Source: a phage. Taken from it: DNA of 64,000 nucleotides. The notes beneath the pieces were generated by a model, which made no database searches, was not told the origin of the DNA, and saw nothing but the letters and a program-made list of their open reading frames with translations. The stretch lies in the sequence record PX393110.1; one strand, 5' to 3'. Position 1 is the stretch's first letter. Each line of letters starts with the position of its first letter. This document shows, one piece after another, positions 1-64,000 of the stretch. Made by a program: the position numbers and the translations under genes.

Positions 1-231
1 ATTATCTGTACGGCATTCATAACCACCATTCTCTACAGCGGTATGCAGGATCTTGGTTCTGTCCATTAATTTAAAAGCCATCAGTGAACCTATAGATTCC
101 GATTTCAGATTTATCCTGGTCAGATAAGTGACCCTGACGGTACATAACCAATCCATCACGAGTCCGGATTATGTCATCTGGGCAGATAGGCTTTAGCCTA
201 CTCATGACCATCAATGCTCTTACCCATTCCA

Positions 232-504
232 TTAGCGGACCTTAGTTAAGTTGCCTCCGCTCACGTAAGGATGTTGCGAGCGGTAGACTGTTGAACTGAA
301 TTCCTGGGTAATAGACTTACACCCACTTCTATACCCAGGATCGTCAGGACTGCGAGGAGTATTCATGGCGGAGCCTTCCCGAATCATCTTCAGGAAGCGC
401 TCCTCCTGCTCCTTAGTTTCAAAGAGCTTATATCCCATAATTACCTCAGAAGGAAATATGGACGTCGACAGGATGCTTCGTAGCAGGAGTAGACTGCTCC
501 ACAT
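232..504 (-). CDS. hypothetical protein
   Basis: 90 aa ORF in the minus-strand gene tiling; true start probably internal (MGYKLF...); no recognisable motif. Confidence 0.3.
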   Translation of the reverse strand: MWSSLLLLRSILSTSIFPSEVIMGYKLFETKEQEERFLKMIREGSAMNTPRSPDDPGYRSGCKSITQEFSSTVYRSQHPYVSGGNLTKVR

Positions 505-754
505 CTGACAGTTTAGAGAACAGATCCTGGAGAGGGATGATCTCGCCTTCGACGAAGAGGTTATCCACGCTCTTGATTACTTTCGCCTTATCTTTATCCA
601 GCACGATAAACGTCGTGGAGATAAAGTAGTCATGGTAGCGAGTATTCGGATGGAGATCGATATTAGTGATCTCCGTCAGATTCTTGGACTGAGCCGCACG
701 CAGCAGGGCTCGGTGCTTAGACTTAATGATTACGGAAGGCATGGTTAGCTCCAC
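446..754 (-). CDS. hypothetical protein
   Basis: 102 aa ORF; true start probably internal (MPSVII...); no recognisable motif. Confidence 0.3.
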   Translation of the reverse strand: MELTMPSVIIKSKHRALLRAAQSKNLTEITNIDLHPNTRYHDYFISTTFIVLDKDKAKVIKSVDNLFVEGEIIPLQDLFSKLSDVEQSTPATKHPVDVHISF

Positions 755-1125
755 ATTAGATTTGTTGTTATCAGTGTATAGGTATGACTGATTGCAGCTA
801 AGGCAGTAAGCATCTTCGATAATTTGACCAGGAACTTAATTTGATCCACAGTCATATTCTCATGTTGCTCATCAAGAAGAGCTGAGGTCCTTAAGGACAG
901 ACCCAGCAGATCTATAGGTTGAGCAACTCGCTCCGCTAAGCTTCCGCATAGACCATCTTCGGTTTCCACCTGAATTAATTGGTCTACAATAGTGTTGTAG
1001 TGAATCGGGAGGAGGTCATCCTTGTTAATAGTGTCCCGTAACCCAACAAGACTCGTCGTTACGATCTTGACGTTATCTTCATCGACTACGTGACCACCAA
1101 CTACGGCTCTGAAGTATACAGACAT
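745..1125 (-). CDS. hypothetical protein
   Basis: 126 aa ORF in minus-strand tiling. Confidence 0.35.
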   Translation of the reverse strand: MSVYFRAVVGGHVVDEDNVKIVTTSLVGLRDTINKDDLLPIHYNTIVDQLIQVETEDGLCGSLAERVAQPIDLLGLSLRTSALLDEQHENMTVDQIKFLVKLSKMLTALAAISHTYTLITTNLMWS

Positions 1126-1134
1126 AGCGGCACC

Positions 1135-1446
1135 TTACTTATTCAGGTCGAGGAAGAAACGAGCACGATGGCTCAGAGAGTATAAATTGCACGGACGACC
1201 ACCCTCTTCCGAGGCAGTGGTCGTTTTGATCAACCAGCCATCCTTCTCCAACTTATTACATACATAATAGATGGACGTACGAGGGATTTGACCCAGTGAT
1301 GCTTTGCTATCAGCAAAGACAGTTAACTCGTTGATCGTGGCTCCCGAAGCGGTTCCGGAGATATACCACAGAATCATCGAGGAAGAATTAGACAGACGAT
1401 ACAGACGAGATATAAGGAACAGTTTAGCGATATCGATGTTTTTCAT
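1135..1446 (-). CDS. PadR-like winged-helix transcriptional regulator (putative)
   Basis: 103 aa; ...YYVCNKLEKDGWLI... resembles the PadR recognition helix/wing (YplLkrLEeeGli). Confidence 0.4.
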   Translation of the reverse strand: MKNIDIAKLFLISRLYRLSNSSSMILWYISGTASGATINELTVFADSKASLGQIPRTSIYYVCNKLEKDGWLIKTTTASEEGGRPCNLYSLSHRARFFLDLNK

Positions 1447-1477
1447 AATAACTCCTAACAGATTAGATTATACTATA

Positions 1478-61257: not shown

Positions 61258-61267
61258 GGAGATTTAA

Positions 61268-63067
61268 ATGTCTGCACCACGCGTAAGCTATGCGGAGCGC
61301 GATCTGAGTGCGTACGTTCCTGCTACTGAGACTATTTATGCGGCTATCGTAGTTGATGCTGTTAAAGGTCCGGTAGAGAAACCGATCGTGCCTGGCAATG
61401 CTCCCAACTTCCTGAAAATCTTTACGCCAAATGAGCAAATCGACATCGGTATGTCTACTGCGCACTTCTCTGCGCTGACCGTGTTGGAGAAATACTCCAG
61501 CGTGGTAGTAGTCCGTGCTGCCTCTGCTGATGCTCGCTATTCCGGCGCTCTGGTAAATAACGACGGTACCGTCGTTACCGCCAGTGATATTAAAGATCCG
61601 TCTGCAGTGGATATGGACGATGAGTCCTTCCTGATTGCCGCAGCTAACCAGGGTCTTTGGGGTGATGAACTCCGCTTCCAGGTACTCGGCTATAAAGCTA
61701 CTGAGACTGTCTCTGTAACTGGCGGTATTCTTAAGTCTACCCAGAAATGGGGTGCTGGTTATCCGGTTAAGTTGGCTGGGTCTAACCTGCCTGCTGAAGT
61801 AAATGATTATACCACTTACTTCGCAGTTCCGGCTACCGGTGGTATTAAACTGGCTACCAGCCGAGCTAATGCTACTGCATCTACTCCGGTCACACTGACC
61901 GTGTCCGATGCCACTGGCGTTATCGTATCTCCGGCTGTGGAGTACACCAAGACTCCTAATACCTTCAATCTGCGGGTATTTAAAGCAGACGATCTGGTTA
62001 ATCCGGTGCTGGATGTAATCGGTTCTAAGATCAATGGTCTTAAGGATCCGGACAATAAGTCTCTGTACATCGAAGATGTTACTGCCGACAATATCTATGC
62101 TCAGGTGTTTAACAACCCTCTGAATACTGATCCGGTAGCCGACATCGTTATCCCAGCAGCATTGGGTGGTGGTTCTAACGGATCTCCGGTTACCGATGGC
62201 GACTGTATTCGTGCTCTGAACAAGCTCAACAACCCTCGTGAATTCGCCATTAAAGTGATCATGAACGGTGGCCGTACTTCTCAGGCTTACGGTTCGGCAA
62301 TCATCGCTCTGGCAGAGTCCCGTGCTGACTGCGTCGGTATTACCTCGGTTCCTCTGACTGCACAGGGTGGCGTATCTCCTGCTCAGTCTATGGTTAACTA
62401 TCGTAAGCACGACACTAACTGGGATACCAGTTATGCTGCCATGTATGCGCCTCACGTTAAGATCTACGATCGTTACAACGACCGTAATCTGTGGGTATCT
62501 CCGGACGGTGTTGCGACGAAGGCTATCTTCGATACTGCGTCTAACTTCGAGATCTGGTACCCAGTTGGTGGTAACAAGCGCGGTGTGGTTAACGTGCTGG
62601 ATACGTACGTACACCTGCTCGATTCTGACCAGGATCTTCTGTATGATGCGGGTATTAACCCTATCGTATTCGAAGAAGGCGAAGGTATCAAGATCTGGGG
62701 TCAGAAGACTCTTCAGTATGCCAGCTCCATGCTGGATCGTCTGAACGTCCGACTCCTGCTGGTTACCATCGGTCCGGCTATCCGTAAACTGTTGGCGAAC
62801 TTCCTGTTCGAATTCAACGATGCGGATACTCGTGCACTGGCTAAAGGTATGGTCGATACCTATATGGATTCGATCATGGCTCGTCGTGGTGTTACTAAGT
62901 ACGTCACTATCTGTGATGATACCAACAACACTGCAAGCGATGTGGATAACCATATCCTGAGAGTAAGCCTGCTGGTTTGCCCGAATAATTCGACCGAATA
63001 CATCCCTCTGACTATTGGTATTACCAATAACAGTGTGGACTTCGATCTGGCCGCGGAAGCACTGTAA
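61268..63067 (+). CDS. tail sheath protein (putative)
   Basis: 599 aa, biased codon use, followed by a ~175-aa tube-sized gene; positional/size call. Confidence 0.45.
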   Translation: MSAPRVSYAERDLSAYVPATETIYAAIVVDAVKGPVEKPIVPGNAPNFLKIFTPNEQIDIGMSTAHFSALTVLEKYSSVVVVRAASADARYSGALVNNDGTVVTASDIKDPSAVDMDDESFLIAAANQGLWGDELRFQVLGYKATETVSVTGGILKSTQKWGAGYPVKLAGSNLPAEVNDYTTYFAVPATGGIKLATSRANATASTPVTLTVSDATGVIVSPAVEYTKTPNTFNLRVFKADDLVNPVLDVIGSKINGLKDPDNKSLYIEDVTADNIYAQVFNNPLNTDPVADIVIPAALGGGSNGSPVTDGDCIRALNKLNNPREFAIKVIMNGGRTSQAYGSAIIALAESRADCVGITSVPLTAQGGVSPAQSMVNYRKHDTNWDTSYAAMYAPHVKIYDRYNDRNLWVSPDGVATKAIFDTASNFEIWYPVGGNKRGVVNVLDTYVHLLDSDQDLLYDAGINPIVFEEGEGIKIWGQKTLQYASSMLDRLNVRLLLVTIGPAIRKLLANFLFEFNDADTRALAKGMVDTYMDSIMARRGVTKYVTICDDTNNTASDVDNHILRVSLLVCPNNSTEYIPLTIGITNNSVDFDLAAEAL

Positions 63068-63077
63068 GGAGATCAGG

Positions 63078-63602
63078 ATGCCGCCTATTACTTTGGATCA
63101 AGTCCGCAATCTGGGAGACTTCGCCACGATCGTCGACTGGGAATTACAGTTCATCACTGTACCTTCCGGCCTGAATAATCTGTCGGATGCAGTCTTCCTG
63201 CGTTGCGAATCTTCGGATATTCCGAAAAAGACTGGTACTTCCACATCTATCCAGATTCGTGGTCTGGTACCGGTTAAACAGCCTGGGATTTACGCTCCTC
63301 CGCAGACTCTTACACTCACCTGTAACGAAACTGTGGATAACGCAATCGCTCAGCAGATTGCTAACTGGCGTGAAATGTGCTATCAGACTGGTACTGGCGT
63401 TGCTGGTCGTACTCAGGATGTTAAGGCGAAACTGCGTCTTAAACGTCTGAATCGTCAGAAAGTCGGTATCTGGTATTATGATCTCGAAGGTGTATTCCTG
63501 GAAGATTATGATGCTGGTGGCCAGCTGGGCTCTACTTCGGCTGACGTACTGAAACCAGTCCTGACGTTGTCCTACGACGACTTCAAGGAAGGAGCTCTTT
63601 AA
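63078..63602 (+). CDS. tail tube protein (putative)
   Basis: 174 aa from ATG 63078 (AAGGAGA upstream), immediately after the sheath-sized gene. Confidence 0.4.
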   Translation: MPPITLDQVRNLGDFATIVDWELQFITVPSGLNNLSDAVFLRCESSDIPKKTGTSTSIQIRGLVPVKQPGIYAPPQTLTLTCNETVDNAIAQQIANWREMCYQTGTGVAGRTQDVKAKLRLKRLNRQKVGIWYYDLEGVFLEDYDAGGQLGSTSADVLKPVLTLSYDDFKEGAL

Positions 63603-63616
63603 TAGAGAGGTAGACC

Positions 63617-64000
63617 GTGTTTTTGAATAATGTTCAACAAGTACGGTCTATCGAATGGGGACAAATGCACTTATGGGATGTAAGATTCCCTGATGCTCCG
63701 TCCCCATTCTCCGACTGGTTTCCTGCTACGGATTATCAGTTGAACTCAGTAACTGGGCTAGCTATGTCTCAGCAGTTTTACATGCGAGATTTTAAGTTCC
63801 CCCAGAGTAAAGGATCTCCGGATTTAACTTTCCAGGTATTGGACGATGAGAAGATGACACTCCACGAGTGGTATCATCATTGGTTCGACGAAATATACCA
63901 GGAGTCTTCCGGAGTACTTACTTTAGCTGAGTGCGTTAGACCAGTTATAGTAGCTACCCTAAATCGTCAGAGACAGAGAGTGTTGTTAGAGACATTCTAT
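63617..64000 (+). CDS. partial CDS (5' portion; continues beyond window end)
   Basis: open frame from GTG 63617 to the window end with no stop. Confidence 0.3.
   Translation, partial: MFLNNVQQVRSIEWGQMHLWDVRFPDAPSPFSDWFPATDYQLNSVTGLAMSQQFYMRDFKFPQSKGSPDLTFQVLDDEKMTLHEWYHHWFDEIYQESSGVLTLAECVRPVIVATLNRQRQRVLLETFY

Follow-up and report, generated by a model that had tools for sequence, protein, structure and literature searches.

A split β′ subunit of RNA polymerase without a detectable β subunit in an IME392-like Escherichia phage

The window analysed here is a stretch of 64,000 nucleotides of phage DNA (record PX393110.1), in which the β′ subunit of a multisubunit RNA polymerase (RNAP) is encoded as two separate genes. 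Homology searches show that these two β′ halves are the only recognizable genes for catalytic RNAP subunits in this phage, and the missing β subunit is an unusual feature of its lineage. As judged by nucleotide similarity, the window is a 64-kb piece, approximately 55% of the genome length, of an Escherichia coli myovirus similar to phage IME392, with a genome of about 111-116 kb.

The two halves of the β′ subunit

The two genes are located as follows:

5330-6898, minus strand: N-terminal half of β′ (β′N), 522 amino acids (aa); Pfam Rpb1 domain 1 (E=3e-14) and domain 2 (E=3e-23)
8777-10291, minus strand: C-terminal half of β′ (β′C), 504 aa; Pfam Rpb1 domains 3, 4 and 5

A split β′ had been recognized in an earlier reading of the window, made from its letters alone (the sequence-only reading), and this is borne out by the Rpb1 domains and by collinearity with E. 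coli RpoC. The identity to RpoC is 31% for β′N (RpoC residues 20-514) and 29% for β′C, and the split is located at approximately E. coli residue 520, just past the catalytic barrel. The best PDB matches are bacterial β′ chains (E=4e-50 for β′N and E=4e-29 for β′C). Phage multisubunit RNAPs are characterized by a split β′ that carries the Asp triad and is interrupted after the double-psi barrel, and both features are found here; the β′ of jumbo phages is broken after the catalytic barrel, at the same kind of site (PMC7598289).

With regard to the functional elements, β′N comprises a zinc-binding domain, the clamp helices, switch 2 (72% identity) and the catalytic double-psi barrel, whose motif reads NMDVDGD. 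β′C comprises the bridge helix, the second zinc site, a trigger loop that lacks SI3, and regions G′/H in reduced form. Both zinc sites are of the Cys4 type, and the trigger loop, which reads LRGKH…NTLADILKTVGG, keeps its Arg and His. In the alignment with RpoC, no counterpart is seen for SI3, the jaw or the C-terminal tail. The DxDxD triad is intact in every clade member examined. At the corresponding positions (β′N residues 462-468), the near-universal NADFDGD is replaced by NMDVDGD in the sublineage formed by the window and P0002, and the other complete clade members exhibit NADFDGD or NADYDGD.

The ratio of nonsynonymous to synonymous substitution rates (dN/dS) of β′ is 0.024-0.038 against IME392 and EP_H11, the closest relatives of the window phage, which is similar to the values of its DNA polymerase (PolA) and capsid protein. 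Together, the alignments and substitution rates show a β′ that is complete, of bacterial type and under strong purifying selection, and that is to all appearances a working enzyme subunit and not a relic.

Full-length matches to β′N were found in IME392, EP_H11, Acinetobacter phage Ab1-TPeters (PP763253), Ralstonia phage RP13, Vibrio 1.031.O, Va2, 150E35-1, and ten Rhizobium records of the RHph_TM30 group. Six-frame searches of whole genomes yielded one β′N and one β′C per genome, and not the two sets that define the phiKZ and AR9 enzymes. In a rough neighbour-joining tree, the β′ sequences of β-less phages form one clade apart from bacteria, with YerA41 and Arash outside it on long branches. 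Two members show further interruptions. The metagenomic relative L012 carries inteins (Intein_splicing with HNH) in β′N (10001-12682) and in PolA (750-4280), and β′N of Ab1-TPeters (62831-64675) is broken into two or three open reading frames (ORFs) annotated as hypothetical, a possible sign of a frameshift, of an error in the sequence or of an additional split.

Absence of a β subunit

The β subunit was searched for with E. coli RpoB, the β of YerA41 (the nearest phage β) and a hidden Markov model of three β sequences, using phmmer --max with the filters off. The six-frame targets were the window, all of IME392, positions 1-100 kb of EP_H11, the circular Ab1-TPeters genome, 41 kb of RP13 and the metagenomic relatives L011 and L012; the remaining 11 of the 111 kb of EP_H11 match the window at 36-48 kb. 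In these targets, no β match was better than E=0.16, and the β′ halves scored 1e-19 to 1e-52. A tblastn search of 50,697 phage records with the β of YerA41 gave 43 matches, none of them from the clade defined by β′N. These matches include YerA41, GN1, Carin-5, Arash, Vibrio D69-like, AR9/PBS1 and phiKZ-like phages, and the β of other lineages (YerA41, Carin-5, Arash, AR9, phiKZ-like) was found by tblastn at E=1e-6 to 1e-27. Rhizobium does not appear in the summary of the RpoB tblastn search, although a β′ of the type seen in the window is present in ten Rhizobium records.

Domain and motif searches gave the same picture. Rpb2 Pfam domains were found neither in the genes neighbouring β′ in the metagenomic relatives nor in ten other large ORFs of IME392, and regular expressions for the β active-site motifs (GDK..RHG.KG, NMxRQ, PSRM) matched no ORF of the window. 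No phage-encoded β that could supply the second barrel was detected in the window, IME392, EP_H11, Ab1-TPeters or the clade records. The sequence-only reading had spoken of fragments of a multisubunit RNAP, which holds for the split β′ but does not extend to β.

That reading had also assumed that β genes lie elsewhere in the genome; none was detected in the complete genomes of relatives. A standard phage multisubunit RNAP with its β genes outside the window is accordingly very improbable. The share of the genome covered by the window leaves room for it, and the IME392 record labels one gene as a beta subunit, but this gene is β′N, and no β was found in six frames in IME392, in 100 of the 111 kb of EP_H11 or in all of Ab1-TPeters. 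The gene in question (IME392 16457-18025) is the orthologue of β′N, and its GenBank label 'RNA polymerase beta subunit' is wrong. Likewise, the YerA41 record labels all three of its polymerase subunits 'beta'. The annotation of IME392 implies that its authors believed β to be present, and such labels hide its absence.

A conserved partner of β′ and the neighbouring genes

The genes surrounding the β′ halves are the following:

4800-5330, minus strand: RNase H-like protein directly downstream of β′N; Pfam RNase_H, E=2e-8; same position in L011
6914-7570, minus strand: 218-aa conserved partner of β′, candidate promoter-specificity factor with a sigma region 4-like modelled C-terminal domain
8076-8768, minus strand: 230-aa protein between the β′ halves; dN/dS about 0.06; orthologue at the same position in L011
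11971-13434, minus strand: 487-aa protein, nearly all-helical in its structure model, between PolA and β′C
14547-17846, minus strand: family A DNA polymerase (PolA), 1099 aa; Pfam DNA_pol_A; SP15/YerA41-like subfamily, described as UDG-fused

In L011, the closest metagenomic relative, the order is kept: PolA, a helical protein of 400-490 aa, small ORFs, β′C, a protein of about 220-230 aa, a protein of about 190-240 aa, β′N and RNase H. Ab1-TPeters shows this order in part.

The 218-aa protein, whose mechanically called ORF reaches position 7633 from a TTG start, belongs to a family of 190-240 aa that is the sole neighbour of β′ common to all five lineages compared (the window, L011, Ab1-TPeters, L012 and RP13). 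An exhaustive search of 1.84 billion representative proteins found just nine clusters of this family. According to the structure model, the C-terminal domain of the 218-aa protein is rather probably sigma region 4-like; the equally helical model of the 487-aa protein, used as a control, yielded no sigma matches. The N-terminal 120 residues have a pLDDT below 50 in the model. Sequence-based methods and Foldseek found no match for the 218-aa protein, nor did sequence comparison reveal a sigma region 2, the part of sigma factors that contacts the β′ clamp helices and the −10 element. The YerA41 protein gp136, located at the same position upstream of β′N, was considered as a relative and is unrelated to the family.

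These neighbours bear on another explanation, namely that the phage encodes a complete polymerase whose β-like partner, whether a single protein or several pieces, is too diverged to be recognized by sequence. The candidates are the 487-aa and 230-aa proteins near β′ and two proteins of 344 and 346 aa at 38-40 kb. Pfam, PHROG and NCBIfam leave many of the conserved ORFs unmatched, the 230-aa protein among them, and the families of both the 487-aa and the 230-aa protein keep synteny with β′ in relatives. The polymerases of crAss-like phages and YonO illustrate how extreme the divergence of phage polymerases can be. In addition, the β of jumbo phages is itself split into pieces (PMC7598289).

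Nevertheless, a conventional, bacterial-like β′ would predict a conventional β partner, and every other phage lineage with such a polymerase reveals its β in a simple tblastn search. The model of the 487-aa protein is all-helical, unlike the barrel-containing β fold, and has no β or polymerase matches; this protein is not β-like. Moreover, β active-site motifs are lacking in the window ORFs. We therefore consider a hidden β unlikely. Two Ab1-TPeters proteins annotated as 'virion structural protein' and 'tail protein' (712 and 673 aa) were also rejected as a hidden β: neither matches RpoB or has a homologue in IME392, and on inspection their sequences resemble tail-spike or fibre proteins.

A promoter-like motif on the minus strand

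A bipartite promoter-like motif of 45 nucleotides occurs in 19 copies:

3658-50255, minus strand: 19 copies of the consensus AA..CCGCTCTTTTGA.G..TCGAAAGGCTGTTAAA.TGT.GGAGG
Copies 1-10, minus strand, first base of the core 10-mer AAGGCTGTTA: 3667, 14274, 17875, 21459, 23315, 25451, 27190, 29531, 30372, 33722
Copies 11-19, minus strand, first base of the same 10-mer: 39167, 44374, 45364, 46829, 48061, 48243, 48301, 48908, 50254

The copies align without gaps across the 45 nucleotides. The exact 11-mer AAAGGCTGTTA is found 19 times in the window, always on the minus strand, against 0.01 occurrences expected. Nearly all copies are intergenic and most are located within approximately 100 nucleotides upstream of a minus-strand gene, three of them being in the tRNA region. 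Early and replication genes are preceded by the motif, and no copy is found upstream of the structural genes. The copies show no consensus fold as RNA, so an RNA structure was ruled out and the motif is read as a DNA site. If the start is at GGAGG, the two boxes would lie at about −37 to −28 and −18 to −6, a geometry of the sigma type.

A cognate motif, ACTCaaAATTGA..TCAAAAGCTGTTTAAAGTGTA, is found on the early-gene strand of Ab1-TPeters, and in L011 the same core is located upstream of PolA. The conservation of the motif across Escherichia and Acinetobacter phages favours a phage-encoded reader. The core also occurs as an inverted pair (TAGGCTGTTAA…TTAACAGCCTTT) at 3628-3667 and 44313-44374, which represents a potential hairpin or bidirectional site. 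Sigma-70 consensus promoters are not enriched at 44-58 kb, and no late-promoter motif was found on the structural strand.

A possible hybrid RNAP

A β′ subunit alone cannot form an active centre or polymerize without the second barrel. Because the β′ of this phage is conventional, selected and catalytically intact and no phage β accompanies it, the host β on its α₂ platform is the partner that we propose. The reading that we prefer, at about even odds, is that the phage β′ and the sigma-like factor assemble on the host β and α subunits as a hybrid polymerase. After infection, both β′ halves would assemble on the host α₂β sub-assembly and replace the host β′. The 218-aa sigma-like protein would give this hybrid enzyme its specificity for phage promoters, the candidate targets being the −35-like box CCGCTCTTTT and the −10-like box AAAGGCTGTTA. 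The promoters used could be either the 19 motif sites or late promoters. In this manner, the phage would redirect transcription while encoding approximately half a polymerase.

Several points weigh against this proposal. The host β is put forward as partner from the absence of a phage β, and this genome is seen only as a 64-kb window. One of the conserved proteins of 487, 230, 344 and 346 aa could be an unrecognizable second-barrel subunit. The core of the motif, TGTTAAAGT, resembles an extended −10 element and could be read by host sigma-70. Furthermore, the β′ and sigma-like genes are located downstream of the motif copy at 14274, and a motif dependent on this factor would need another starter.

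The β′ halves could also act outside any active polymerase, as decoys or regulators that, for example, sequester the host β or sigma and so switch off transcription of the host. This would agree with the lack of an encoded second barrel, and purifying selection alone is no proof of catalysis. However, a decoy would not need the catalytic elements, and the Asp triad, the trigger-loop Arg and His, the bridge helix and both zinc sites are kept across a deep clade of phages infecting five host genera, which makes this explanation improbable.

The hybrid polymerase may not be restricted to the window phage. It is possible, if somewhat doubtful, that the whole clade (IME392, EP_H11, Ab1-TPeters, RP13, the RHph_TM30 group, Vibrio Va2, 1.031.O, 150E35-1) takes over transcription by subunit replacement, resulting in a chimeric virus-host multisubunit RNAP. 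No description of β′-only phages, hybrid polymerases or a β′ swap was found in the searchable literature.

Comparison with known phage RNAPs

Like the window phage, Ab1-TPeters, RP13, RHph_TM30, Va2, 1.031.O and 150E35-1 have a split bacterial-type β′ (30-38% identity on the N-terminal half) and no detectable β. Ab1-TPeters shares with the window the synteny, the sigma-like partner and the cognate motif, with protein identities of 23-63%. RP13 shares the sigma-like partner, a fused Mre11-Rad50 protein and the topoisomerase. These β′-only relatives differ in genome size (110-207 kb), in host and in the gene order around β′.

YerA41 (Yersinia) and Carin-5 (Cobetia) also have a split β′ of similar size, an SP15-like DNA polymerase and the pathway with a ThyA homologue. 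In YerA41, the β′ halves are of 556 and 518 aa and, unlike in the window, a 924-aa β adjoins β′N and β′C. A β homologue was found in Carin-5 as well, in contrast to the window phage.

The phiKZ-like and AR9/PBS1-like enzymes resemble the present arrangement in having a small non-canonical specificity subunit with the core. In contrast, the phiKZ and AR9 jumbo phages carry two complete sets of β and β′ pieces and do not depend on the host enzyme, whereas the window phage has a single β′ set and no β in a genome of about 115 kb. Their β′ is also far more diverged, with tblastn matches of E=1e-4 to 1e-6 to the window β′ over approximately one third of the length.

The multimeric-RNAP-encoding Caudovirales (mReC) were defined on contigs chosen for both β and β′ (Weinheimer and Aylward 2020, PMC7481178). 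They resemble the window phage in their cellular-like subunits, in being tailed phages and in the gp23-type capsid protein (PF07068, which the window protein matches narrowly). The window phage differs from them in that β′ is present and β is absent. As no β is encoded, its polymerase arrangement lies outside the definitions of both the phiKZ/AR9/YerA41-type enzymes and the mReC.

Sigma-type phage factors that redirect the host polymerase include T4 gp55, MotA/AsiA and SPO1 gp28/gp34. The takeover in T4 and SPO1 resembles the proposed one in its phage specificity factor, conserved phage promoters and an enzyme with host subunits, the hybrid in the window phage being inferred. Phages of the T4/SPO1 type do not replace a catalytic subunit, unlike the proposed β′ swap. 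Straboviridae are further defined by a family B DNA polymerase and an unaltered host polymerase core, whereas the DNA polymerase of the window phage belongs to family A and its β′ is phage-encoded.

The phage and its relatives

The three thirds of the window were compared by megablast with the same 50,697 phage records, and only two genomes matched, those of the Escherichia phages vB_EcoM_IME392 (MH719082, 116.5 kb) and EP_H11 (OP688485, 111.4 kb). The nucleotide identity is 86-97% to IME392, with approximately 95% of the window length covered, and 84-96% to EP_H11. The comparison with IME392 consists of six collinear blocks of 97.2, 93.0, 96.2, 89.6, 86.3 and 96.1% identity, with about 5% unaligned and a few stretches replaced. 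The map of EP_H11 is a circular permutation of the IME392-like map with the same gene order. At 34-49 kb of the window, the identity is just 86-90%. A further 267 spurious megablast matches to Klebsiella and Salmonella phages come from tRNA-Arg similarity.

Over the 64-kb window alone, the collinearity and more than 70% nucleotide identity expected within a genus are found in comparison with IME392. The block values of 86.3-97.2%, again obtained on the 64-kb window, straddle the threshold of at least 95% over the full genome that delimits a species. The window phage and IME392/EP_H11 therefore probably belong to the same genus, at the species boundary.

IME392 was described in 2021 in Arch Virol, in a paper whose title calls the phage 'genetically unique'. 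IME392, EP_H11 and RP13 are all 'unclassified Caudoviricetes' in the taxonomy of September 2026. Two papers, one of them a preprint (bioRxiv 10.1101/2025.03.26.645540), placed IME392 and EP_H11 in the SP15/RP13-like thymidine-hypermodifying group, which is characterized by an SP15/YerA41-like (UDG-fused) family A polymerase and presumed hypermodified thymidine (bioRxiv 10.1101/2025.03.26.645540). The sequence-only reading had suggested an undescribed or poorly described lineage. Given the two matches at 84-97% identity, undescribed does not apply; poorly described is apt, as these relatives are unclassified and little annotated. It had named high identity to a well-characterised genus as the result that would speak against it: the identity is high, but the matching phages form no such genus. 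The lineage is present in databases yet barely annotated and unclassified, and the window phage is a new isolate of it.

Other genes of the window

Pfam and PHROG scans found in the window all the gene classes listed in the sequence-only reading, with some corrections given below. The genes between the β′ region and the structural block, all on the minus strand, are the following:

13459-14184, minus strand: 241-aa zinc-finger protein, homing-endonuclease-like; PHROG 681 'endonuclease'
17904-19541, minus strand: DinG/XPD-type superfamily 2 (SF2) helicase; Pfam Helicase_C_2, ResIII
19505-20497, minus strand: Toprim primase-like protein; Pfam Toprim_2
20797-30335, minus strand: thymidine-hypermodification and nucleotide-metabolism cluster (Pfam, NCBIfam, literature context)
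21480-22553, minus strand: ThyA homologue; PF00303, E=5e-12
23362-24333, minus strand: 5-hydroxymethyldeoxyuridine (5-hmdU) DNA kinase helical-domain protein; PF18723 HMUDK_hel, E=5e-35
27199-28581, minus strand: betaine/carnitine/choline transporter (BCCT); Pfam, E=4e-92, full-length
29595-30335, minus strand: methyltransferase; Pfam
30440-31687, minus strand: type IIA topoisomerase A-like subunit; Pfam DNA_topoisoIV
31690-33708, minus strand: type IIA topoisomerase B-like subunit; Pfam Toprim, DNA_gyraseB, HATPase_c
34385-37150, minus strand: fused Mre11-Rad50, 921 aa; Pfam Metallophos (residues 1-184), SMC_N, AAA_23 and Rad50 zinc hook (residues 300-921)
37147-38004, minus strand: FEN/5′-3′ exonuclease; Pfam 5_3_exonuc_N
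40460-43818, minus strand: RusA-like resolvase and helicase region; Pfam RusA
40909-42168, minus strand: DnaB-like helicase; PHROG scan
42178-43818, minus strand: SF2 helicase; Pfam ResIII, Helicase_C
46979-47276, minus strand: tRNA-Met(CAT) and tRNA-Arg(TCT); ARAGORN, Rfam

In the PDB, PolA is matched best by two large polymerase I entries, 9qhs with 1142 aa and 9qlh with 1306 aa, the latter having the length stated for the YerA41 polymerase. SP15-like family A polymerases are large and are characterized by inserts and an additional N-terminal domain. With its 1099 aa and these matches, PolA corresponds to such a polymerase, the UDG fusion being part of the description of the subfamily. The 0.9 kb at 13351-14263 have no counterpart in IME392, which has 187 bp there, and are replaced by a different ORF of 303 aa in EP_H11. 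This region looks like a hot spot for mobile genes between the 487-aa gene and PolA. The 241-aa gene in it is probably a homing-endonuclease-like mobile gene and not a part of the polymerase; its reading as T5orf172/GIY-YIG-type was made by eye from the sequence, with no search match.

The helicase/primase region (17904-20497) matches PHROG 2488 (E=4e-92). In the hypermodification cluster, an HD/YfbR-like protein, the ThyA homologue, an AAA_28 kinase-like protein, the HMUDK_hel protein, a PIG-L deacetylase, the BCCT transporter and the methyltransferase are accompanied by three proteins without assigned function, two before PIG-L and one after the transporter. The ThyA homologue and the 5-hmdU-modifying enzyme (of aGPT-Pplase or 5-HMUDK type) expected in the SP15/RP13-like group are thus both found (PF00303 and PF18723), and the predicted gene content places the window phage in this group with its thymidine-hypermodification pathway. 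A dCTP deaminase and a dUTPase are annotated in IME392 outside the region that matches the window.

The ORF at 23362-24333 is the orthologue of RP13 ORF120. The RP13 gene was called aGPT-Pplase in a 2025 preprint, according to which no 5-HMUDK is detectable in such phages (bioRxiv 10.1101/2025.03.26.645540); the product may accordingly be either a kinase or a pyrophosphorylase. The BCCT transporter, an unusual phage gene, lies inside the cluster. IME392 and EP_H11 have it as well, under the annotation BetT, and its role may be the uptake of a precursor for DNA modification.

Mre11 and Rad50 are both present, as had been read from the sequence, but in a single fused ORF. Ab1-TPeters and RP13 have the same fusion, annotated as SbcC-like in the former and as SMC ATPase in the latter. 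PHROG 77 is matched within the Mre11-Rad50/FEN region (34385-38004), and PHROG 19 and PHROG 16 in the resolvase/helicase region. The helicase described as UvsW-like is an SF2 helicase, and the UvsW-like label goes beyond what the scans support. The 2 kb at 46185-48268 contain no ORF of at least 100 aa and hold both tRNAs and three motif copies (46829, 48061, 48243). An Rfam scan of the window found nothing beyond these tRNAs.

The structural genes form the contiguous block that had been noted, at 50.4-63.6 kb on the plus strand, with everything else on the minus strand:

50364-63602, plus strand: myovirus morphogenesis block, with a putative small terminase first and head/neck proteins between capsid and sheath
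50898-52724, plus strand: TerL; weak PHROG match, 59% identical to the Ab1-TPeters homologue
52725-54302, plus strand: portal, by position
54562-55998, plus strand: prohead (head maturation) protease; protease family match
56054-57481, plus strand: gp23-like capsid protein; PF07068, E=2e-5, 24.6 bits against a cut-off of 24.4 (barely passes)
61268-63067, plus strand: sheath; Pfam Phage_sheath
63015-63602, plus strand: tube; PHROG scans of the block

The gene at 54562-55998 had been taken for a scaffold and matches a head maturation protease family instead. The block matches PHROGs 2, 207, 1014, 23 and 4542 and is syntenic with that of Ab1-TPeters at 30-63% identity. Directly after the capsid gene, a strong intrinsic-terminator-like hairpin of 12 pairs followed by a T-run is located at 57506-57534 (plus strand), with a TTGACA-type site beyond it at 57554.

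Biological significance

The multisubunit polymerases of phages are regarded as complete enzymes through which the virus becomes independent of the polymerase of its host. If the hybrid model is true, the window phage would exhibit a third strategy, located between factor-based hijacking (T4) and full independence (phiKZ), in which one catalytic subunit of the host machine is replaced. It would also represent a natural experiment on the tolerance of the β–β′ interface. The arrangement bears on the origin of the phiKZ-, AR9- and YerA41-type enzymes, which could have arisen in steps, with rpoC captured first and rpoB later, or, conversely, β could have been lost. If the hybrid model fails, a second-barrel subunit unrecognizable by sequence would also be of interest. 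The 19-copy motif and the sigma-like protein are direct handles for biochemistry and, as IME392 and EP_H11 are cultured E. coli phages, the idea of a polymerase shared between virus and host is experimentally accessible.

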